The position numbers and the translations under genes are program-made. This document shows positions 1,649 to 11,067 of a DNA stretch of 11,308 nt, in pieces (position 1 is the stretch's first letter; the number at the start of each line of letters is the position of its first letter). This DNA comes from Candidatus Hodarchaeota archaeon (lineage in GTDB: Archaea; Asgardarchaeota; Heimdallarchaeia; Hodarchaeales; Hodarchaeaceae): assembly GCA_029856365.1 (NCBI GenBank), contig JAHQWW010000125.1, forward strand, positions 1 through 11,308, given 5' to 3'. The notes under the pieces were generated by a model, which made no database searches, had not been told where the DNA came from, and saw nothing but the letters and a program-made list of their open reading frames with translations.

Positions 1649-2671
1649 ATGTATGAGTTAAAAATCGATGAAAAAACATGTGAAACATGTCCAACCTTTG
1701 ATTGCCTCGTTAGGTGCCAATATATCGATATTGATAAAGACACAGCAAAGACAGAAATGAAGAAAATGATTTCTGGGGAAGATTCATTTGTGTTACATGA
1801 TTGTGTAACATGTTATGCTTGCGAGGAATACTGTAAGAGAGGTAATCATCCGTTCTATTTAATCACTGATCTTCAGGAAGAAAGAGGGATTCTTCCTATG
1901 CCTAAGCCCCTGAAGACCCAATTTGTCAACATTTCAGTGCCAACAAGAAGAGATATTATTCAATTTTATGGTGCTGAAGAGCCTGTTATTTCCCTTTGCC
2001 TTTTTCCTCAATATACTAGGTTATTTAGTGAAGAAAAGCTTTTTGAGGAACTTTCAATCATTATAGGACGGTACTTCTTTTGCCATCTCATGTACCTTCA
2101 CTCTGGTAATCCCTCTTTGATTCGAGAAAGACTCCCAAAAATAATAGATAATATCGCGAATCACGGATTTAAAGAGGTAATTTTCTTTCATGATGAATGT
2201 TATTCAACATTAACTTCCTATACAACAGCTTATAGTATTGAAGTTCCTTTCAAACCCATTCATTTCAATGAATATCTTTACAATAAATTAAAAGACCAGC
2301 AAACGAAGATACAACCCCTAAACGCAAAAGTGGCTTTCCAACGAAATTGTTCCGCTCGTTTGACTCCAAATGTAGAGGATTTTGTTGATGACATCTTCAA
2401 TTTAATAGGAGCTGAGAGAGTGGAAAGACAATACGACAGAGAGAATGCACTCTGTTGTGGGGGAATAATTCGAGGCCAACAACGATATGACCTCTTTGTT
2501 GATGTCCAAACGAGAAACGTTGACGATATGCTGAATGCTGGTGTTGAATATTGTGTATTTCAGTGCCCTGCTTGTTTTGATTCTCTCTCTGAGAAGGTTG
2601 CGGAGAAAGGAATCAAACCGATAATGATGCATGACCTGTGCTTACTAGCAATCCAAGGAAGTGATAAATAA
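1649..2671 (+). CDS. (Fe-S)-binding protein, heterodisulfide reductase-related (ferredoxin-like N-terminus plus CCG domain)
   Basis: 340 aa. Cys clusters CETCPTFDCLVRC and CVTCYACEEYC. C-terminal CCG domain with FQRNC, ALCCGG and FQCPAC. The first CCG-like half is degenerate (FFCHL, FHDECY). The stop overlaps the next start (TAATG, 2669-2673). Confidence 0.85.
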   Translation: MYELKIDEKTCETCPTFDCLVRCQYIDIDKDTAKTEMKKMISGEDSFVLHDCVTCYACEEYCKRGNHPFYLITDLQEERGILPMPKPLKTQFVNISVPTRRDIIQFYGAEEPVISLCLFPQYTRLFSEEKLFEELSIIIGRYFFCHLMYLHSGNPSLIRERLPKIIDNIANHGFKEVIFFHDECYSTLTSYTTAYSIEVPFKPIHFNEYLYNKLKDQQTKIQPLNAKVAFQRNCSARLTPNVEDFVDDIFNLIGAERVERQYDRENALCCGGIIRGQQRYDLFVDVQTRNVDDMLNAGVEYCVFQCPACFDSLSEKVAEKGIKPIMMHDLCLLAIQGSDK

Positions 2672-4050
2672 TGCAATCTATATACAAATCTTTGACCAAA
2701 ATCGTAGATGAGGAGTTTGTTTCAAATCAGAAAGAAGAGCTTTACATCTACTCTCAAGATCCAGGAATGATGGAACCTCACGAACCAGATTTTGTTGTGA
2801 TGCCTAAAACTACAGAAGAAGTACAAGAAATAGTTAAACTTGCGAACAAGGAGAAAATACCTATAGTTCCAGTGGGAGGTTCATTAAGTTTGTCTGGTTT
2901 GGTTATTCCTCATCAAGGAGGGATTGTAGTAGATTTAAGAAGAATGGATCAAGTTTTAGAGGTTAATGAAGAAAGTAGGTACATTGTATTTGAAGCAGGG
3001 CTAACAACTGGAAAATTAAAGGCTTATCTGGAAAAATATCACCCCTTATTACGTTTCTCGATACCTGATGCTCCTCCTTCTGCTACTGTAGTTGGAAATA
3101 TTGTAATTCATGGACAAGGACGATTAACTCAACAATATGGGTTTAATTCTGATATGGTAACGGGAATGGAGGTTGTTTTGCCAACTGGAGAAGTATGTAA
3201 GATTGGTTCTGGTTCTGTCAGTCCTTATTGGTTTTCACTTGCCCCTTTACCTGATCTAGCGGGATTATTCTTAGGATGGTTTGGAACCACGGGTATAATT
3301 ACTAAGATGGGTCTTAAATTATACCCTAAGAAGAAATTGAGAGACATTGAAGTATTTGCAGTAGAAGATCCAAACCTAGTTCCAGATGTGATCCAAAGAG
3401 TGACTCATACTGAAATGAGCGAAGATATTTTTACTGGTGCTCAACCGTATCCACCCGTATTCAAAGATATCATTATGATAGGAATTCTTTTGACAGGAGA
3501 TTCAAAGGAGGAATTAGAATTTAAAAGAAAGATGATTTGGGATGCTCTCCAATGTCATATCGATAGCAAAGAGGGGGGATTCATGATGATGACCCCAGAT
3601 GTAAAACAAGACTTGTTAGAGATGCCAACTAGTAGTACAACAAGATTTGCTGATGTAAAAAAAGGGGGTGGATTTGAATATTGTGGGCCTATTATTCCTG
3701 TGGAAAAATTTCCTGAAGCCTTCACAAGATTACTTGAAATTACAAAGAAATATGGAATTACTTTTGGTAATGCAGGGCGAGTTATTGGTAGAAGTCATTC
3801 TATGATGTTTTCTTTTGGTTACCCATTCAATCGTGCGGACCCAGAAAATATTGAAAGAACGAAGAATGCGTTGCATGACACAAATGTAGCAAGTTTGGAC
3901 ATCGGAGGCGTACCTTGGAAGCCTGAGGTTCCCGCACAAAAAATGATCATGGAAAAGATGGACAAAAGTACGCTTGAACTGATGCAGCGGATAAAGAAGG
4001 TTCTTGATCCAAATGGAATCATGAACCCAGGAAATTGGGAGGTCGAATGA
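2671..4050 (+). CDS. FAD-binding oxidoreductase, VAO/PCMH (GlcD/D-lactate dehydrogenase-like) fold
   Basis: 459 aa. FAD_binding_4 signatures PDFVVMPKTTEEVQEIVKLAN..IPIVPVGGSLSLSG, GGIVVDLRRMDQVLEVN, ATVVGN, VTGMEVVLPTGEV, DLAGLFLGWFGTTGIITK. C-terminal IKKVLDPNGIMNPG. Confidence 0.9.
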   Translation: MQSIYKSLTKIVDEEFVSNQKEELYIYSQDPGMMEPHEPDFVVMPKTTEEVQEIVKLANKEKIPIVPVGGSLSLSGLVIPHQGGIVVDLRRMDQVLEVNEESRYIVFEAGLTTGKLKAYLEKYHPLLRFSIPDAPPSATVVGNIVIHGQGRLTQQYGFNSDMVTGMEVVLPTGEVCKIGSGSVSPYWFSLAPLPDLAGLFLGWFGTTGIITKMGLKLYPKKKLRDIEVFAVEDPNLVPDVIQRVTHTEMSEDIFTGAQPYPPVFKDIIMIGILLTGDSKEELEFKRKMIWDALQCHIDSKEGGFMMMTPDVKQDLLEMPTSSTTRFADVKKGGGFEYCGPIIPVEKFPEAFTRLLEITKKYGITFGNAGRVIGRSHSMMFSFGYPFNRADPENIERTKNALHDTNVASLDIGGVPWKPEVPAQKMIMEKMDKSTLELMQRIKKVLDPNGIMNPGNWEVE

Positions 4051-5213
4051 TGTACGATTACGCTGATCAAATCCACAGATGCTTCAAATGTGGTTACTGT
4101 AAATTTTCTAATAATTATACAGATTTCAATTGCCCCTCTTACAATAGATTTCGATTTGAATCTTACTCTACAGGAGGAAGGCTATGGCTTATTTGGGCCT
4201 GGTCAAAGGGGGAGATTGAATGGTCAGAGCATTTAGCTAATATTGTGTTCTCATGTGCAGCATGTAGAAATTGCGTTGAACAATGTCCAATGCGATTTAA
4301 TGAAGACATAGTGGATTGGATTATTGGCGCACGTAGCGACATGGTCGAAAAGGGACTCATCCCAGCTTCAGTTGGAGAATTCCTAGATAACATCCACAAG
4401 TATGGTAATCCTTGGGGAATGCCAAGAAACGAAAGAGATATTTGGGCTGAAGGAATAAACCGTTATACCATTGATGATGATAATGAATATCTTTTCTATG
4501 TAGGATGTGTTGGATCTTACGAAAAGCAAGGACAACAAATGGCTAAATCTGTTGCTGATTTTTTACGAACAACAGGTGTATCTTTTGGAATTCTTGGCTC
4601 TGATGAGGATTGTGATGGAAATGAAGTATTATTCACAGGAGAAAAAGGATTATTTCGAGAATTAGCGGATAAAAATATCGAGAAATTTAAAGAACTTAAT
4701 GTGAAAAAAATTATCACTCTTTCTCCTCACGCGTATAACTCAATGAAAAATAAGTATGGAGGTCTTGGGGAAATTAAAGTATATCACTATACCCAAGTTT
4801 TCTCGGAAATAATTAACAGTAACAACATTGAATTATCTGATCTCAACATCAAAGTAACTTATCATGATCCCTGTTTCCTGGGAAGGTATAATAGTATTTA
4901 TGAACCCCCAAGAGAGATAATAAAGGGTATCCCAGGAGTTGAACTCATTGAAATGGAGAGAACTCGAGAAAACTCTTTCTGTTGTGGTGGTGGAAGTGGA
5001 AATTTCGTTTTTGACCTCTTAGGAAGATCATCAAATAGCCCTAGTAGAATTCGAGTGAGAGAAGCTTATGAAACTGGAGCTGAACTCTTGATTGTATCTT
5101 GTCCAAGTTGTTATTGTATGCTCGAGGAAGCGATAAAAACTGAAGGATTAGAGGAAAAATTGATGATAAAAGATATTTCCGAGCTCGTAATAGAATCAAT
5201 AAAAAACAAATAA
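4047..5213 (+). CDS. (Fe-S)-binding oxidoreductase subunit, GlcF/HdrD-like (two 4Fe-4S motifs plus CCG domains)
   Basis: Motifs CFKCGYC...CP, CAACRNCVEQCP, GNPWG, YVGC, VTYHDPCFLGR, SFCCGGGSG, VSCPSC. The start is more likely ATG 4047 or 4050 (ATGATG overlapping the upstream TGA, with GGAGG at 4038-4042) than the track's TTG at 4035. Confidence 0.9.
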   Translation: MMYDYADQIHRCFKCGYCKFSNNYTDFNCPSYNRFRFESYSTGGRLWLIWAWSKGEIEWSEHLANIVFSCAACRNCVEQCPMRFNEDIVDWIIGARSDMVEKGLIPASVGEFLDNIHKYGNPWGMPRNERDIWAEGINRYTIDDDNEYLFYVGCVGSYEKQGQQMAKSVADFLRTTGVSFGILGSDEDCDGNEVLFTGEKGLFRELADKNIEKFKELNVKKIITLSPHAYNSMKNKYGGLGEIKVYHYTQVFSEIINSNNIELSDLNIKVTYHDPCFLGRYNSIYEPPREIIKGIPGVELIEMERTRENSFCCGGGSGNFVFDLLGRSSNSPSRIRVREAYETGAELLIVSCPSCYCMLEEAIKTEGLEEKLMIKDISELVIESIKNK

Positions 5214-5256: not shown

Positions 5257-6699
5257 ATGCTTCTCCAGAGAAAAAAGAAAGAGTTAGCTGAAGATCCATG
5301 TCAGAATTACCATGTCCTCTGTGGAATTGAAGAAGAGTTTCTAATTATAAATGAAGATGGCACGCTAGTAAATGCTGCTGATGAATTGATGGTGAGAGCT
5401 GCCGAAATTTTGGAACGAGATTCCAAACGGTTAGATTTTCTCCAACTAAAAATTCGAGGATTGGATGCTGAACCATCACCAAGCCAAATTGAGTATGTTA
5501 CTCTTCCACTTCCACCTAAAGATATTGCAGAAGCAATGAAAGCTGGGAGGAAACTGCTTTCTGATGCAGCAACGCAATTAGGATATAGAATATTCTCTCA
5601 GAGTATGCATCCTATACAGAGCGATCCTCATCCCATGAGTGGAACTCATATTAATGTTTCAGCCCAAACAGGGGGATTCATGACTGCGGAAGAGCTAGCT
5701 GCAGTCCATAACTATCTTTGGAATTATCTTCCCGAATTAATTGCGCTATCTGCAAACACTCCAATTCTTCAAGGATCTAAGACAAATGTGGCTAGTAATC
5801 GAATTAGTAATTCGACTGTTCTCAAACCAAATGGTTCGTCTCAAATTCAGATTCCAAAACGAAATGCAGCATTAATTCCGATGCAGTACTACGGTAGAAT
5901 GCGATACACCTTACGTATAGCAGGCGAGAACGTGAAAAAAGTTATAACTAATCCAAGAGGTGAGAGGCTAGTAGATATTACACCAAGAGGACCATTAACG
6001 AACATAGGTGAAGATGAGGATTCCGCGCTCACAACAAACCGTGTAGAAGTGAGAATTTTTGATGTTCAACAGGATCTTGAGTATCTCCTTGATCTTGTTT
6101 ATCTATGCTGTGTCTCAGCTTTGCATGCAATTTACATTTATACTACAGGGGAAATCACCCTTGATCCTAATCACAGAACCAATGTAGAACAAGCGGTTTT
6201 TAATGGTGTTAATGCCCGATTCATACGGAATGATAGAGAGGAGTCTTTACAAGAAAGTGTATCTCGTTGGATAAATGAAACAGAAAAATATCAGGATATC
6301 TTGGGAATTAAGATTCGAAAACTCCCTACAATCAAGACTGATTTTCGGCAGGGTGAATTAGAAGTCGAATTTACGACAAGAAATATTGAAGAACTGCGGC
6401 AACAAGGAAAAGTGTTTGTAGTAGTTCAATTGAATAAATCACGAACAATCACTGACCAACGAGGGAGAAAATATGGTATTTCTCGCGGAACTCAGTTACA
6501 AGGAATGTTAGATGTTGATTATAAGCTCCCTTACCAAGAAAAAGAAAATATCGTCACTGATTTCCAGGCAATTAAAATAACTAATACACTTGATGTCCAA
6601 GGAATAAAAATCCCATTAGATAATAAAGATCGAATTCTTGTTGCATTAAGTAGATCGGATTATTTGTCACGAAGCCTCTTTGGTGGTTTTGGATTTTAG
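5257..6699 (+). CDS. Glutamate--cysteine ligase family 2 (GCS2/YbdK-like) carboxylate-amine ligase with an extra C-terminal domain
   Basis: 480 aa. Ordered GCS2 motifs: GIEEEF (ExE metal ligands), SQIEYVT, MHP, GTHINVS, LIALSANTP, ASNR, RVEVRIFDVQ. About 120 additional C-terminal residues lie beyond the usual ligase length. Confidence 0.82.
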   Translation: MLLQRKKKELAEDPCQNYHVLCGIEEEFLIINEDGTLVNAADELMVRAAEILERDSKRLDFLQLKIRGLDAEPSPSQIEYVTLPLPPKDIAEAMKAGRKLLSDAATQLGYRIFSQSMHPIQSDPHPMSGTHINVSAQTGGFMTAEELAAVHNYLWNYLPELIALSANTPILQGSKTNVASNRISNSTVLKPNGSSQIQIPKRNAALIPMQYYGRMRYTLRIAGENVKKVITNPRGERLVDITPRGPLTNIGEDEDSALTTNRVEVRIFDVQQDLEYLLDLVYLCCVSALHAIYIYTTGEITLDPNHRTNVEQAVFNGVNARFIRNDREESLQESVSRWINETEKYQDILGIKIRKLPTIKTDFRQGELEVEFTTRNIEELRQQGKVFVVVQLNKSRTITDQRGRKYGISRGTQLQGMLDVDYKLPYQEKENIVTDFQAIKITNTLDVQGIKIPLDNKDRILVALSRSDYLSRSLFGGFGF

Positions 6700-6736
6700 C
6701 AATAAAACTATTGTTAATAGAAGGTGTCACAACGTA

Positions 6737-7117
6737 ATGATAGAAGAGCAAAGAGAGGCTACTAACGAGAAGTGTGACCGGTTATTCACTTATGGAACCT
6801 TACAATCTGGATATAGTCGAAATTATCTTCTTAGGGGATTAGAATATGAGAAAGCGATTTTACTGGGTTATCGGAAGCTCACTCCTCCCAAACTAGGTTT
6901 TCCATTCATAATCCAAGACTACAAATCTAATGTTACTGGTGAGATTTATTTCCAGTTAACTCAATCCCACTGGACACAAATTGATTTAGTTGAAGGGGAA
7001 GGTTCTCTATATCATAGAGTTCTCGTAGAAGTGAAAACAATCTCAAAAGGGAGAAACTTATCTGCTTTTACTTATTACCCCTCAAAAAGACTTATTGAGC
7101 AATATAGTGAGAAATAA
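6737..7117 (+). CDS. Gamma-glutamylcyclotransferase (AIG2-like/GGACT family)
   Basis: LFTYGTL signature, GFPFI, VTGEIY, and IDLVEG...LYHR carrying the family's catalytic-position Glu. Probable start is ATG 6737 (AAGGTG at 6721-6726), giving 126 aa, rather than the track's TTG at 6680. Confidence 0.88.
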   Translation: MIEEQREATNEKCDRLFTYGTLQSGYSRNYLLRGLEYEKAILLGYRKLTPPKLGFPFIIQDYKSNVTGEIYFQLTQSHWTQIDLVEGEGSLYHRVLVEVKTISKGRNLSAFTYYPSKRLIEQYSEK

Positions 7118-7120
7118 ACA

Positions 7121-8026
7121 ATGTGCCGCTTATTGGGTCTTTGGGCGAATCAAAACCACAAAAAGTCTTCTAGACATTTATTGAAATACTGGTTTAGTGC
7201 TTGGCTGGATTCTACGAAGAAGGATCACTACTTAAACAGAGTTTATGGCGTTCCAGAAGGGAATTGTGTCCACAAGGATGGCTGGGGTATTGTAACTCTT
7301 GGAACTGATCATGATTATAAGATAATATGGGAACACAAAAATCAAGATCTAAAACCTGCTTTCTCTTACAGAAAAAACAGTCTAGCTCGGTTGGTCATAG
7401 GATCTCCTCTTCTCAAATCAACACATCAAATTTTGTTAGCTCATGCAAGAAGGGCAAGTGTAAATACGCCAGTATCCTTGCAACAAGTACAACCATTACT
7501 GATTCATGATGAAAAAAGTTCAAGAAAGGTCTTTCTTAGCCACAACGGTACCCTCAATTCAAAGATTCTCAACGATATATTAGATACCGAATTACATCCA
7601 ATCTCAGTTCAAGTTAATGATTTCTCTGACACTCAATTGTTAAGCTGGTATATCAGACAAAAACTAGAAAATAACTCTAGTAAAAGCAGTATTGAGCATT
7701 TTTGGATTCCAATTTTACAAGAAATTATTGATAAGCATCAAGAAGACAACACAAATTACCAAATGCAACTAATAATTTTGGAAATTACCGAAAATAATCC
7801 ACAATTAATCATTTGTTCTGCATTAAGTGATAAATCAAAAAGATTAATGCCCTATTATCGGTTATTTATTGGAAAAAAGGGGGAATTTCGGGTAATATGT
7901 TCTTCTACGATCGTTGATTACTTTAAAAGTGACCATAAATCTATCAACTGGAGTTTAGATCCAATATCAAACAAAACTCTTGTTAATCTTACCTCTGAGG
8001 GCGAATTTTACCATAAATTCTCATAA
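7121..8026 (+). CDS. Class II glutamine amidotransferase / Ntn amidohydrolase (YafJ/EgtC/Dug3-like)
   Basis: 301 aa. The N-terminal M-C-R-L places the Cys nucleophile at position 2. Motifs HKDGWG, LLAHARRAS, FLSHNGTL, SDTQ. Starts 3 bp after the cyclotransferase stop. Confidence 0.85.
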   Translation: MCRLLGLWANQNHKKSSRHLLKYWFSAWLDSTKKDHYLNRVYGVPEGNCVHKDGWGIVTLGTDHDYKIIWEHKNQDLKPAFSYRKNSLARLVIGSPLLKSTHQILLAHARRASVNTPVSLQQVQPLLIHDEKSSRKVFLSHNGTLNSKILNDILDTELHPISVQVNDFSDTQLLSWYIRQKLENNSSKSSIEHFWIPILQEIIDKHQEDNTNYQMQLIILEITENNPQLIICSALSDKSKRLMPYYRLFIGKKGEFRVICSSTIVDYFKSDHKSINWSLDPISNKTLVNLTSEGEFYHKFS

Positions 8027-8065: not shown

Positions 8066-9010
8066 TTATAGTGGAAATCTTTTCATTCGGCTGTTAACCA
8101 TTTGGATGCCATATTTAACCATTTTAGGAATCCTACCTTCTAATCCAGTTTGAATATATATCAAACCAGCACAACAATATAGGAATTTCATCCTGTTTTT
8201 AAAATTCCGATCTTTGACTCCATTATAATTAGCTAATAAATGATTCAAAAAGAATCCACCTTCGTCATAAAATACGAAGTCTCCTGCTGGATCATAAATA
8301 CCTGTTTCCTCAAAATCTATTATTCCTGTTACTTCAAACGTTAAAGGATCAACCAAAACATTTGATGTATCAAAATCTCTATGAACAACACATGGAATAA
8401 AATCAAAGTTCTTCTTCTCATCTAAAAATTGAAGAAATATTTGGGATACCCATTTTTTTTGTTGAGTGTCTAGCAAAGGATAAGCGTTTTCCTGTACCAT
8501 TTTAAAATAATTTTGCCAATAACATTGATATTGAGAAGGATTAAAATCCTGTTCACTTTTCCAAGTCGTACAGATTCTCTGATACACTTTTCGAGAGTGA
8601 AGTTCCGAGAGAAATCTTCCAAGTTGAATAGCAATATTTTCTTGATCAATTTTAGTGGTTCTGTTAAAACATCTGGATAAGGAGATTCCATTAATTTTTT
8701 TATAACCCATAAAAGGGTTATTTGAATCAGTTGAAACGTAGGTAGGTTTAGGTATTTGTAGAGTAATATTCTCACGGATTAGATCTAGAATTTTTAATTC
8801 CCGCTGAATTAAATTAAATCCTTTTTCACCACCAAAAAAGACTTTATCAGGAAATCGAAATATGTACCCTCCCTTAACCTCGAAAACATTATAACTCCCA
8901 TGATAATGAAATCTAATTTCATGCTCCCTGATATTTAGGGAACATGTCTTTAATAATCTCATTACTTCTGATAGAGAAATACTTGGTGGATTAGTTTCCT
9001 CATAAAACAT
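8066..9010 (-). CDS. Aminoglycoside phosphotransferase / choline kinase (APH) family protein; substrate unknown
   Basis: 314 aa. YIFRFP, RELKIL, IPKP, MGYKKINGISL, QLGRFLSELHS, catalytic loop VHRDFDTSNVLVD, metal-binding GIIDFE, then DPAGDF. Confidence 0.85.
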   Translation of the reverse strand: MFYEETNPPSISLSEVMRLLKTCSLNIREHEIRFHYHGSYNVFEVKGGYIFRFPDKVFFGGEKGFNLIQRELKILDLIRENITLQIPKPTYVSTDSNNPFMGYKKINGISLSRCFNRTTKIDQENIAIQLGRFLSELHSRKVYQRICTTWKSEQDFNPSQYQCYWQNYFKMVQENAYPLLDTQQKKWVSQIFLQFLDEKKNFDFIPCVVHRDFDTSNVLVDPLTFEVTGIIDFEETGIYDPAGDFVFYDEGGFFLNHLLANYNGVKDRNFKNRMKFLYCCAGLIYIQTGLEGRIPKMVKYGIQMVNSRMKRFPL

Positions 9011-9108
9011 TGAAAAAACCCTTGAGAATCTTATGGCTATTTACTGACTTTCTAGTTCCACTAAACAATTCTTTAAATGATCTCTTTAGACATATCTCAA
9101 GTACATTG

Positions 9109-9131
9109 AAGTGAATTTTAAAATTTCACTT
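9109..9131. promoter_or_regulatory. Near-perfect 23-bp palindrome (terminator hairpin or operator) between the lysE-like and APH-like genes
   Basis: AAGTGAA-TTTTAAAAT-TTCACTT, about 25 bp downstream of the LysE stop and about 100 bp upstream of the kinase start. Confidence 0.4.
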
Positions 9132-9156
9132 ATTAATGAAATCTTTTTATAGGATT

Positions 9157-9858
9157 CTATAATACAACATTTCCCACTGTGAGTATTGGCGAAATTGATA
9201 AGTATAAACCAAAAATAATCATAAATATGCTACAAATAATAATGATCCCAAGGTAAATTCTTTTCGTTAAGAACTTATTAGTAAAACCAAGTAAGGCTGC
9301 TATTGATACATACCAGAGGAAATCTCCAAGTTCATGCCCAAGAAAGAAGCTCCAAAATTCCAGATTCAAAAGACCCACTGAAAATTGAGTCATAAAATTG
9401 AGTCCTATAACAGCCCACCAAATCCACCAATAAGGGTTCGACATTGACACCAATATGCCTCCGAGGGTGGGTTGTTGAAGCAGGTTAATTGTTTTTTTTG
9501 TGTTTTCATTTTTCAGGATGATCTCATTCTCTGGTATCAAAAAATTAAAATCAATTTTCTTCAACCAAATATCTCTTAAGAGATTAATGCCGAAAAATAT
9601 CAGGATCCCACCACCCAGTAAACCAATTATGATAATAATAGATTGATCAGTAATAAAAGGAGACAAACCGATGAGTAAAACTAACATTAATATGAATTCT
9701 AAAATTGCATGACCAATCCAGATGAGAAGACCAATTAAATACGCTTTTCTTTTTGATTGAAGTGCTTTATAGATTGTATAAGTAAGCAAAGGGCCAGGTG
9801 ACATTGCTCCTGATAATGCAACGAGAAATGAAAGAAGAAAGATTTCAAAAAAACTCAT
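9157..9858 (-). CDS. LysE/RhtB family amino-acid/small-molecule exporter
   Basis: 233 aa with about six hydrophobic segments. Motifs ALSGAMSPGPL, GHAILE, GILVSMSNPYWWIWW, GHELGDFLWY. An RBS-like AGGAG lies at 9875-9871. Confidence 0.88.
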   Translation of the reverse strand: MSFFEIFLLSFLVALSGAMSPGPLLTYTIYKALQSKRKAYLIGLLIWIGHAILEFILMLVLLIGLSPFITDQSIIIIIGLLGGGILIFFGINLLRDIWLKKIDFNFLIPENEIILKNENTKKTINLLQQPTLGGILVSMSNPYWWIWWAVIGLNFMTQFSVGLLNLEFWSFFLGHELGDFLWYVSIAALLGFTNKFLTKRIYLGIIIICSIFMIIFGLYLSISPILTVGNVVL

Positions 9859-9945
9859 TAAGATTATTGGCTCCTAATAACAATATTTACGATCAAAGAT
9901 ATTATTTTTTATGTTGAAAGAATCTTTCGGTAGTATTGAAATAAA

Positions 9946-11067
9946 ATGGAAAAGAAAGAAGGTCACCTATCTTATCGGCGAACTCCGATTGAAAAGGAAT
10001 CACCAGAAGAGTTTGGGTACGAGAGAATTAAGTATAATCTTGCAGAAAGCTCTGTTCCCGATTTTGTCCTTGGGAATCTTGATCTCGACTTAACTGATCT
10101 CGCACTCAGTTACACTGATCATTTGGGTAATCCTCACCTTAGACAAAACATCGCAGGAGAATGGGTCAATCCAGAGCACGTTTTGATAACAACAGGAGCT
10201 GCAGGTGCATTATTTATTATTGCTACGTCTCTTCTGAAGTCAAGTGATCATGTTGTGATTTTACATCCGAATTATGTTGCGAATCTTGAATCTCCGCGGG
10301 CTATTGGTTGTCAGATGGATTATCTGAGATTAACAATGGAGGAACAATTTCAATTTGACCTTAATAAGCTGGAACAGTTGATTCAACCTAATACACGTCT
10401 TATTAGTCTTACATACCCCCAAAATCCCACTGGAACAATGATTACTGAATCTGAGTTGAGTGAAATCATTTCAATGATAGAGTCTAAAGGGATTTACTTA
10501 TTATTAGATGAAACATATAGAGAGATGACCCCTGAGCCTCTTCCAATAGCTGGCTCATTAAGTGAAAATGTAATTAGTGTTTCCTCTTTTTCCAAGGCAT
10601 ATGGTTTACCTGGTATCCGATTAGGTTGGTTGATTAATCAGAATAAAGAATTAATGGAGACTTTCTTAGCTGGAAAAGAGTTAATCTTTATTTGCAATTC
10701 TATCGTCGATGAGGAAATCGGGGCGTATTTTCTAGCAAGAAAAAGAGAATTTTTAACAGGGATTCAAAAACATGTAAACATTAACTTAGAAATATTGAAT
10801 AATTGGATAGAAAGTAATGATTACATGGAATGGGTAAAACCAAGTGGTGGTGTCATTTGTTTTCCGAGAATAAAACAAGATATCAATATCGATCTTGAAA
10901 AGTTCTATAAAGTTCTAAAACACACTTACAAAACTTTTGTAGCACCTGGTCACTGGTTTGAAGTAGATAAACGGTTTATGCGCATTGGTTATGGTTATCC
11001 CAACCGACAAGAACTTGAGGGGGGTCTTCAATCTATTACAAAAGCTATTCAGGAGAGCATAATTTAG
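9946..11067 (+). CDS. PLP-dependent aminotransferase, class I/II fold
   Basis: 373 aa. YNLAESS, VLITTGAAGAL, PNY, PQNPTG, LLLDETYRE, PLP-lysine motif SFSKAYGLPGIRLGW, PGHWF, FMRIGYG. Confidence 0.92.
   Translation: MEKKEGHLSYRRTPIEKESPEEFGYERIKYNLAESSVPDFVLGNLDLDLTDLALSYTDHLGNPHLRQNIAGEWVNPEHVLITTGAAGALFIIATSLLKSSDHVVILHPNYVANLESPRAIGCQMDYLRLTMEEQFQFDLNKLEQLIQPNTRLISLTYPQNPTGTMITESELSEIISMIESKGIYLLLDETYREMTPEPLPIAGSLSENVISVSSFSKAYGLPGIRLGWLINQNKELMETFLAGKELIFICNSIVDEEIGAYFLARKREFLTGIQKHVNINLEILNNWIESNDYMEWVKPSGGVICFPRIKQDINIDLEKFYKVLKHTYKTFVAPGHWFEVDKRFMRIGYGYPNRQELEGGLQSITKAIQESII

Follow-up and report, generated by a model that had tools for sequence, protein, structure and literature searches.

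What do three tightly packed genes in an Asgard archaeon accomplish, and do they act as one system? The genes lie on the forward (+) strand of contig JAHQWW010000125.1 from a Candidatus Hodarchaeota archaeon (assembly GCA_029856365.1), in a stretch of 11,308 nucleotides of low G+C content (31-40 %) that was analysed as a whole and is called the window here. The first gene is predicted to encode an ATP-dependent carboxylate-amine ligase of the GCS2/YbdK superfamily, the second a gamma-glutamyl(amine) cyclotransferase of the AIG2/GGACT type, and the third a divergent, stand-alone class-II glutamine amidotransferase (GATase)-like amidohydrolase of the N-terminal nucleophile (Ntn) type. An earlier interpretation made from the DNA letters alone (the sequence-only reading) had described the trio as one writer and two erasers of a gamma-glutamyl group. 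On balance, it is probable that the three genes form one functional cassette that makes a gamma-glutamyl-type amide on a small molecule and limits or reverses its formation.

Open reading frame (ORF) calling placed the genes at 5257-6699, 6737-7117 and 7121-8026, all on the same strand and separated by gaps of 37 bp (6700-6736) and 3 bp (7118-7120). The ORF list began the middle gene at a TTG at 6680. The ATG at 6737 was adopted as the start, giving a protein of 126 amino acids (aa), because alignments of homologues begin there or at most 10 residues away and because a Shine-Dalgarno-like word, GAAGGTG, lies ~10 nt upstream of it. The translated ligase carries G23-I-E25-E26-E27, G129-T-H131 and E264-V-R266, the cyclotransferase Y19-G-T-L22 and D83-L-V-E86-G, and the Ntn protein M1-C2, H51-K-D-G-W-G56 and H141-N-G143. 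The positions, co-orientation and spacing proposed in the sequence-only reading were reproduced by ORF calling with the homologue-based start, and its statement that the catalytic motifs are intact in all three genes agrees with the translations. The enzyme class that it named for each gene is likewise supported, for the first two proteins by the Pfam models GCS2 and GGACT and for the third by Ntn motifs together with Foldseek matches of a low-confidence model. The trio occurs in identical gene order in six further species-level genomes, with protein identities of 78-94 % for the ligase, 67-91 % for the cyclotransferase and 58-90 % for the Ntn protein. Since the same three genes recur in the same order in these genomes, their arrangement is not due to chance.

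The ligase (5257-6699, +; 480 aa) matches Pfam GCS2 (PF04107) at 44.5 bits against a cut-off of 21, and this match was found in all 17 aligned members of its family. Comparison of the family with YbdK-like proteins by hhalign aligned residues 19-362 at a probability of 99.95 % (E 1.3e-38) and 23 % identity. Residues E25, E27, E79, H131, E264, R266 and D269 are invariant across the aligned family, and the invariant columns of YbdK fall on invariant residues of the Asgard family with a single exception, the second His of HxH, which is Asn. In other words, a homologous core of ~300 residues and the motifs GhExE, E, GxH and ExR are common to the window ligase and to YbdK and other GCS2 ligases (PF04107; PDB 1r8g and 1tt4), including haloarchaeal GshA and mycobacterial EgtA. 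Unlike those enzymes, the window ligase has Asn in place of the second His, a strongly conserved and poorly modelled insert of ~50 residues (186-236), and a C-terminal domain of ~120 aa, and its family is confined to a few archaeal lineages and misses all NCBIfam subfamily and equivalog cut-offs. The best score against TIGR02050 and NF010039-45 was 58.7 bits (cut-off 176.4), and the NCBIfam glutamate-cysteine ligase (GCL) equivalogs gave 20-42 bits (cut-offs 332-437). By these criteria the protein is a divergent GCS2/YbdK-superfamily carboxylate-amine ligase and no orthologue of GshA, YbdK or EgtA. The sequence-only reading had allowed that the ligase might simply be a GshA orthologue, which the GCL scores contradict, and had proposed searches with GCS2 and GGACT models, both of which scored above cut-off. 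Pfam Amidoligase_2 (PF12224) gave no match at E <= 1 among the 17 family members, and Pfam Pup_ligase gave none in the window proteins or in the same 17 members.

Further evidence for this assignment comes from the AlphaFold model of the ligase, which has a predicted local distance difference test (pLDDT) score of 77. The closest fold is that of the YbdK homologue 1tt4 (Z 25.3; root-mean-square deviation 3.7 Å over 310 aligned residues), followed by plant GCL (2gwc, Z 19.7), Dop (18.4), GshF (16.9), GshA (16.5), PafA (16.1) and glutamine synthetases (~15). GmaS and the 1-naphthylamine glutamine synthetase are also among the matches. The YbdK and GCL folds are clearly nearer to the ligase than those of PafA and Dop. 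YbdK, plant GCL, GshF, GshA, Dop/PafA and the glutamine synthetases all activate a Glu-type carboxylate.

The C-terminal domain (residues ~363-480; 6343-6696, +) lies outside the YbdK alignment and is specific to the family. It is modelled as ten strands and one helix with a pLDDT of 80-90, is kept in the Korarchaeal and other deep members, and ends in LFGGFGF. This aromatic/Gly tail, RLFGxFxF, is present only in the Hod and Loki-type clades of the family. Only weak fold matches to small beta-barrels were obtained (Z 4.4-4.7), and a PDB profile search and a structural feature search with the domain returned nothing meaningful or usable. No fused or longer forms of the ligase were found, which is weak evidence.

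The second protein (6737-7117, +) is clearly classed by its sequence as an AIG2/GGACT member and not as a ChaC enzyme. It matches Pfam GGACT (PF06094) at 53.4 bits against a cut-off of 22.8, its nearest solved relatives are the Arabidopsis AIG2-like proteins 2jqv and 2g0q, and conservation of the motifs YGTL, GE.Y and D..EG..Y.R reaches 90 % or more across 45 orthologues. Its position directly after the ligase fits the same assignment. By analogy with human GGACT, E86 would be the catalytic Glu. Enzymes of the GGACT fold, among them GGACT, GGCT and BtrG, require a free alpha-amino group on the gamma-glutamyl amide.

The third protein (7121-8026, +; 301 aa) is more divergent. It falls below the cut-offs of both Pfam GATase_6 (23.5 bits; cut-off 27) and GATase_4 (20.0 bits; cut-off 23), and PF13522 appears in the precomputed matches of some of its orthologues. 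Cys2 is present in 14 of 15 aligned family members, and the fifteenth sequence lacks its first four residues. H51-x-D-G-W-G, R110, H141-N-G143 and S169-D-T-Q, including D170, are invariant in the alignment, and the segments HARR, HNG and SDTQ align with HVR, HNG and SDTE of Bacillus subtilis PurF. The PurF and GlmS counterparts of R110, N142-G143 and D170 bind the free alpha-carboxylate and alpha-amino group of the glutamyl moiety during glutamine binding. The structural model has a pLDDT of 59, with the N-terminal half below 50, and the best Foldseek matches of this low-confidence model are exclusively Ntn GATase domains (PurF, EgtC and GlmS; E ~1e-6). Because the conserved residues align with those of PurF and the Foldseek matches are solely Ntn glutaminase domains, the protein is accepted as a probable, divergent class-II Ntn amidohydrolase. 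Its family comprises 25 clusters, all from Hodarchaeales-type sources.

Two further occurrences of this family were recorded. In a sister genus (L128:1-7092, - strand; genome G022), a homologue with 28 % identity is the first gene of a co-oriented cluster in a genome in which a GCS2-type ligase was not found. It is followed by genes for an AMP-binding ligase, an HGD-D dehydratase subunit, an ApbA/PanE-type reductase, a BcrAD/BadFG activator and a thiolase, a cluster suggestive of 2-hydroxyacyl-CoA fermentation. One complete genome of the window's genus (G015) has only a C-terminal fragment of the Ntn gene (C1:1174758-1175159), far from the ligase, and carries the flavoprotein gene discussed below as two separated pieces (C1, at 2065878 and 516898). 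The fragment and the split gene are possibly gene remnants.

Is the trio itself the conserved unit? ORFs were called and clustered in 64 genome loci plus the window (65 in total) and in 51 metagenome loci from a scan seeded with outlying ligase members. The most common arrangement in the 65 genome loci is the ligase followed by GGACT and then by a 248-aa protein (34 loci), which is a class-I GATase that also matches Peptidase_C26, though less strongly. The trio of ligase, GGACT and Ntn protein is found in seven loci including the window. The 248-aa protein follows the ligase directly in 11 loci, GGACT alone follows it in four, and in two a 4-alpha-glucanotransferase gene is inserted between ligase and GGACT. 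GGACT is therefore immediately 3' of the ligase in 45 of the 65 loci, or 47 with the two insertions counted. The ligase has none of these downstream arrangements in seven loci. In six of these, which belong to the deepest branches, an FGase-like protein adjoins the ligase in divergent or co-directional orientation; this protein matches N-formylglutamate amidohydrolase and, weakly, poly-gamma-glutamate hydrolase (PghP). An FGase-like gene also lies directly 5' of the ligase in 25 of the 51 metagenome loci, often overlapping it (median gap -11 bp). The inserted glucanotransferase gene (Glyco_hydro_77, 608 bits) was seen in two basal Hodarchaeales-clade genomes (L019:9496-11043 and L064).

Across the genome and metagenome loci, the ligase thus nearly always stands beside at least one of four partner types: GGACT, class-I GATase/Peptidase_C26-like, Ntn, or FGase/PghP-like. 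The core unit is the ligase plus at least one enzyme related to Glu-amide cleavers, with the partner swapped among four unrelated folds. As a result, the proposal of a conserved three-gene module needs to be amended. The trio is a tight unit in seven genomes and the ligase is tied to amide-cleaving enzymes throughout its family, but the two-eraser trio is not what is conserved. Likewise, one writer with two erasers fairly describes the window, but the state with two erasers is lineage-specific, and each of the two can be dispensed with in some lineage. The neighbourhood pattern is strong contextual evidence that the ligase is functionally coupled with cleaving enzymes, and indirect evidence for a glutamyl amide with free alpha groups in its product. 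Could the genes instead be mere neighbours of unrelated function? Each partner is dispensable in some lineage and members of the Ntn family are also found apart from the ligase, as would be expected from chance adjacency. However, the genes remain adjacent when ligase identity falls to 33-46 %, in different archaeal phyla and after the partner fold has changed, and the partners are co-oriented with operon-like gaps that are short or negative (medians 26, 11 and -11 bp), which makes an accidental association highly improbable.

A tree of the ligase, rooted on its most divergent member, shows three groups. The first consists of the FGase-linked deep branches. The second is the Hodarchaeales clade, in which all members have GGACT and the Ntn gene is restricted to one seven-member subclade. 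The third is a large Loki-type clade with a class-I GATase in almost all members and GGACT in most. In the Hodarchaeales subclade, the Ntn gene holds the slot after GGACT that is occupied by the class-I GATase in the sister clade, and a search of the window's genus for an orthologue of that GATase found none; together these observations form a pattern of functional replacement. By its place on the tree, the Ntn gene joined the cassette late and in a single subclade. Two VIT1 genes, a BcrAD/BadFG activator and two HGD-D subunits stand before the cassette in the Loki-type clade (L027:2947-11975 and ~25 similar loci), and four loci have a further HGD-D paralogue after the class-I GATase, which in L027 overlaps the GATase stop codon. 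This linkage may be functional or may just reflect the shared ancestry of close genomes.

An alternative is a glutamine-dependent two-subunit amidotransferase. After phosphorylation of a carboxylate by the ligase, the GATase (of class I in the sister clade and of class II in the window) would deliver ammonia from glutamine to form a carboxamide, and would not be an eraser. GatB/GatE, which belong to the same ligase superfamily, do act with glutaminase subunits (PMC2588565). Moreover, among NCBIfam models the class-I partner comes closest to those for glutaminase subunits of the GMP, carbamoyl-phosphate and aminodeoxychorismate synthases, and both GATase classes are primarily glutaminases. This arrangement would leave the conserved GGACT unexplained, and several ligase members have no GATase, only GGACT or an FGase-like hydrolase, neither of which could supply ammonia. 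In addition, known stand-alone class-II GATases such as EgtC and Dug3 are hydrolases, whereas the class-II domains known to donate ammonia are fused to their synthase. An ammonia-delivering role is accordingly considered unlikely.

The deep branches add a second ligase to the picture. Many metagenome loci carry a gene for an ATP-grasp ligase of 390-435 aa (YheCD/RimK/GshB/MptN type) immediately upstream or downstream, and the Korarchaeal, Njord and hydrothermal-metagenome loci (L077-L099; for example L091:3858-7443 and L078:5137-8567) show a tight set of ligase, FGase/PghP-like hydrolase (~300 aa) and ATP-grasp ligase. The two-ligase layout recalls GshA-GshB or the synthesis of oligoglutamate. 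A search of the window's class with a Njord query did not find this ATP-grasp partner. In Borrarchaeum (L069:6960-7871, - strand), the FGase-like protein that adjoins the ligase has a C-terminal histone fold (CBFD_NFYB_HMF, 38 bits, above cut-off), and in L065 a weak MTH865-like match occupies the position of this domain.

These layouts bear on another explanation, in which the target is a protein or peptide. The ligase would put Glu, or a peptide ending in Glu, on protein lysines or on C-terminal or side-chain carboxylates, and the neighbouring enzymes would trim the mark, as in pupylation or polyglutamylation. Dop and PafA are indeed among the nearer folds (Z 18.4 and 16.1), the extra conserved beta-rich domain and aromatic tail of the ligase could bind a partner, and the deep loci combine a RimK/TTL-like ATP-grasp ligase with a carboxypeptidase-like FGase protein, with the histone-fold fusion in one lineage. 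On the other hand, YbdK and GCL are the nearer folds, PafA and Dop ranking below both, and no conserved small tag gene or ORF, Pup-like or other, was found near the ligase in the 116 neighbourhoods. GGACT and GATase enzymes are known to act on free small gamma-glutamyl amides, and the authors who described analogous bacterial neighbourhoods favoured peptide metabolites (PMC2588565). Protein or peptide tagging is therefore judged quite improbable. The same low weight is given to its family-wide form, in which the ligases would be the writers of a new archaeal protein or peptide glutamylation, the C-terminal domain would recognize the target, the cyclotransferase, GATases and FGase would trim or erase the mark, and the RimK/TTL-like ligase would elongate it in the deep branches. 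If true, archaeal protein glutamylation would be an Asgard-era counterpart of pupylation or of tubulin and histone glutamylation.

How widespread is the ligase? The names carried by near-identical proteins and contigs point to an Asgard host of the Hodarchaeales/Heimdall type. A scan of one genome per prokaryotic species, confined to two peptide patterns, yielded 64 ligase loci, almost all of them with an Asgard label. When 1.84 billion representatives were searched exhaustively with HMMER, only 64 matches reached E <= 0.001, of which ~13 are full-length clusters, and the matches below about E 1e-10 were ordinary 360-aa YbdK-like proteins. Among the full-length members, the outliers derive from Korarchaeia (Ca. 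Methanodesulfokora) and from a metagenome-assembled genome (MAG) labelled Methanopyri. By these searches the family is small and archaeal, comprising Asgard, Korarchaeia and hydrothermal MAGs. Of 21 other genomes in the window's genus, 10 proved to carry the ligase, so its function is accessory. Outside the genus, the rest of the class showed only weak partial matches within much larger proteins. Weak GCS2-like segments were seen inside ~1,000-aa open frames of the window's own genome (G000:C87:2811-2954) and of a genome from another family of the class (L012; G031:C100); these frames represent a different, large ligase-domain protein.

The window gene is the only clear GCS2 match in its genome, which is 83.6 % complete; a second canonical GCS2 gene, a GshB-type ATP-grasp ligase and an EgtD-type methyltransferase (Methyltransf_33) were not found in it. 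The sequence-only reading had remarked that EgtD and glutathione synthetase are absent nearby, which holds for the genome as assembled. A search of the genome for 5-oxoprolinase gave one strong Hydantoinase_B match, possibly a 5-oxoprolinase subunit, and PxpA was not found; the match is compatible with 5-oxoproline recycling but is not diagnostic.

A sole GCS2 gene without a GshB partner would fit a system whose end product is gamma-Glu-Cys. In this explanation, the ligase would serve as a gamma-glutamylcysteine synthetase like that of haloarchaea, and the cyclotransferase and Ntn protein would degrade gamma-Glu-Cys in the way that ChaC/GGCT and Dug3 act on glutathione. It gains from the four kinds of glutamate-cysteine ligase among the structural neighbours and from the GshA-GshB-like pairing of deep-branch ligases with GshB/RimK-like ATP-grasp enzymes. 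Against it, the ligase reaches 42 bits where the GCL equivalogs demand 332-437 and shares only 23 % identity with YbdK-like proteins, and the cyclotransferase is of the GGACT/AIG2 type (PF06094) and not ChaC. An enzyme present in about half of a genus would also be unexpected for the main redox buffer. Taken together, thiol turnover appears fairly unlikely.

How, then, would the cassette work? In the favoured explanation, a cassette for a gamma-glutamyl-type amide on a small molecule, the ligase would spend ATP on activating a carboxylate, which by comparison with the closest structural relatives is most likely the gamma-carboxyl of L-glutamate, and join it to the amino group of a small-molecule acceptor X to give a gamma-glutamyl-X amide. 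The AIG2/GGACT enzyme would free X by cyclizing the glutamyl part to 5-oxoproline, and the Cys2 Ntn enzyme would free X by hydrolysis to glutamate. The gamma-glutamyl group may transiently protect an amine or serve as a handle on it, or the product may be a gamma-glutamyl metabolite that is kept in balance. The glutamate donor, the gamma linkage, the small-molecule acceptor and the action of both downstream enzymes on the ligase product are four points that we infer. They are supported by a YbdK/GCL-homologous core with all metal- and ATP-binding residues, whose fold neighbours activate Glu-type carboxylates; by the amide-cleaving enzyme types that flank the ligase across the 65 genome and 51 metagenome loci; by the replacement of the class-I GATase on the tree by an Ntn protein that keeps the PurF-like Cys, Arg, Asn-Gly and Asp; and by the need of GGACT-fold enzymes for a free alpha-amino group, together with precedents for such ligase/hydrolase pairs in EgtA/EgtC and PuuA/PuuD and, as described in PMC2588565, in the neighbourhoods of Amidoligase_2.

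Several observations weigh against this explanation. The ligase scores far below every NCBIfam GshA and YbdK cut-off, and its substrates may therefore differ from Glu and an amine. It is present in only 10 of the 21 other genomes of its genus. A ligase with GGACT alone is a futile, ATP-consuming cycle unless the intermediate is processed, and a conserved processing enzyme was not found in the ligase neighbourhoods. In the sister clade, the class-I GATase is less like PuuD-type hydrolases than like glutaminase subunits that deliver ammonia (GuaA-N, CarA and PabA). Lastly, the N-terminal half of the Ntn protein is modelled with low confidence, and the distant Ntn homologue of the sister genus exists there without the ligase.

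The theme of a carboxylate-amine ligase with an amide-cleaving partner is already known for another ligase family. Iyer, Burroughs and Aravind (2008) described bacterial 'new CAL' ligases of GCS2 size that adjoin a GAT-like thiol peptidase or an AIG2 cyclotransferase, and predicted that these neighbourhoods make glutathione-like peptide metabolites (PMC2588565). Phage pairs of amidoligase and cyclotransferase are attributed to Iyer et al. 2009 in a later paper (PMC11253131). These Amidoligase_2 neighbourhoods share with the present cassette a ligase of glutamine synthetase fold and GCS2 size beside a GAT-like peptidase or AIG2-type cyclotransferase. The cassette differs from them in its archaeal hosts, in its ligase family, in having both partner types together, and in its additional use of Ntn class-II and FGase-like folds. 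No paper on this Asgard cassette was found in a literature search, and a review of archaeal thiols notes for Asgard only that GshA-type InterPro matches exist (PMC7278568).

The EgtA-EgtC pair follows a similar plan, in which a gamma-glutamyl group put on by a GCS2-type ligase is later taken off by a stand-alone class-II Ntn amidohydrolase with Cys2, and EgtC is among the top structural matches of the window Ntn protein. However, that protein scores only 19.3 bits against the EgtC model TIGR03442 (cut-off 218.65), indicating that it is not an EgtC orthologue, and the EgtD-type methyltransferase was not found in the genome. Ergothioneine synthesis is not known to require a cyclotransferase. PuuA/PuuD, IpuC/IpuF, AtdA1/AtdA2 and NpaA1 share with the cassette the logic of ATP-dependent gamma-glutamylation of an amine followed by removal with a GATase-type hydrolase, and BtrJ/BtrG of butirosin synthesis that of removal by a GGCT-fold cyclotransferase (BtrG). 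The ligases of the Puu, Ipu, Atd and Npa pathways and BtrJ are of the glutamine-synthetase or ATP-grasp type, whereas the window ligase is of the GCS2 type. Furthermore, unlike the amine gamma-glutamylation pathways, the archaeal cassette has no conserved oxidizing or processing enzyme, and the flavin and Fe-S genes that precede it in the window are unlinked in relatives.

Those genes (1649-5213, +) encode a CCG Fe-S protein, a GlcD-like flavoprotein and a GlcF-like Fe-S protein, overlap or have short gaps, and end 43 bp before the ligase. The same layout stands beside the trio in two related genomes and one metagenome contig in addition to the window. A six-gene unit including them was considered and rejected as an obligate one, because the flavoprotein gene is 4 Mb from the ligase in the complete genome G009 and occurs independently of it: the flavoprotein is present in four genomes of the genus in which the ligase was not found, and was not found in five that carry the ligase. 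Further upstream, a long open frame on the opposite strand (1-1293, -) runs off the window. It matched no Pfam or NCBIfam model, and two related genomes have it next to the cassette, conserved at 43-80 % identity.

Downstream (8066-11067), genes for a convergent APH-fold kinase, a LysE-type exporter and a pyridoxal phosphate (PLP) enzyme are syntenic with the trio in the closest genomes. The PLP enzyme comes closest to PRK07324, GntC and capreomycidine synthase, in each case with a score under the cut-off, and homologues of the kinase are widespread in the genus irrespective of the ligase. Kinase, exporter and PLP enzyme could hint at basic amino-acid chemistry nearby. Two cofactors with gamma-glutamyl tails were also considered as targets. 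A methanofuran-type tail was rejected, as MfnB (PF04476) was found in none of the 21 genomes of the genus, and the F420 tail was set aside as uninformative, CofE homologues being present in 41 of 41 genomes with or without the ligase.

What does the cassette mean for these archaea? Among known organisms, Asgard archaea and especially the Hodarchaeales stand closest to eukaryotes, and hardly any of their small-molecule and redox biochemistry has been explored. The ligase represents an uncharacterized family that is confined to a few archaeal lineages and unusually consistent in its coupling to Glu-amide cleavers, a coupling kept through repeated swaps of four folds. The cassette is thus a testable candidate for a new gamma-glutamyl metabolite (a thiol, an osmolyte or a cofactor tail) or for an archaeal protecting-group pathway. 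If the acceptor is a protein, it would constitute a new tagging system, and if the acceptor is cysteine, the missing low-molecular-weight thiol route of these archaea would be identified.

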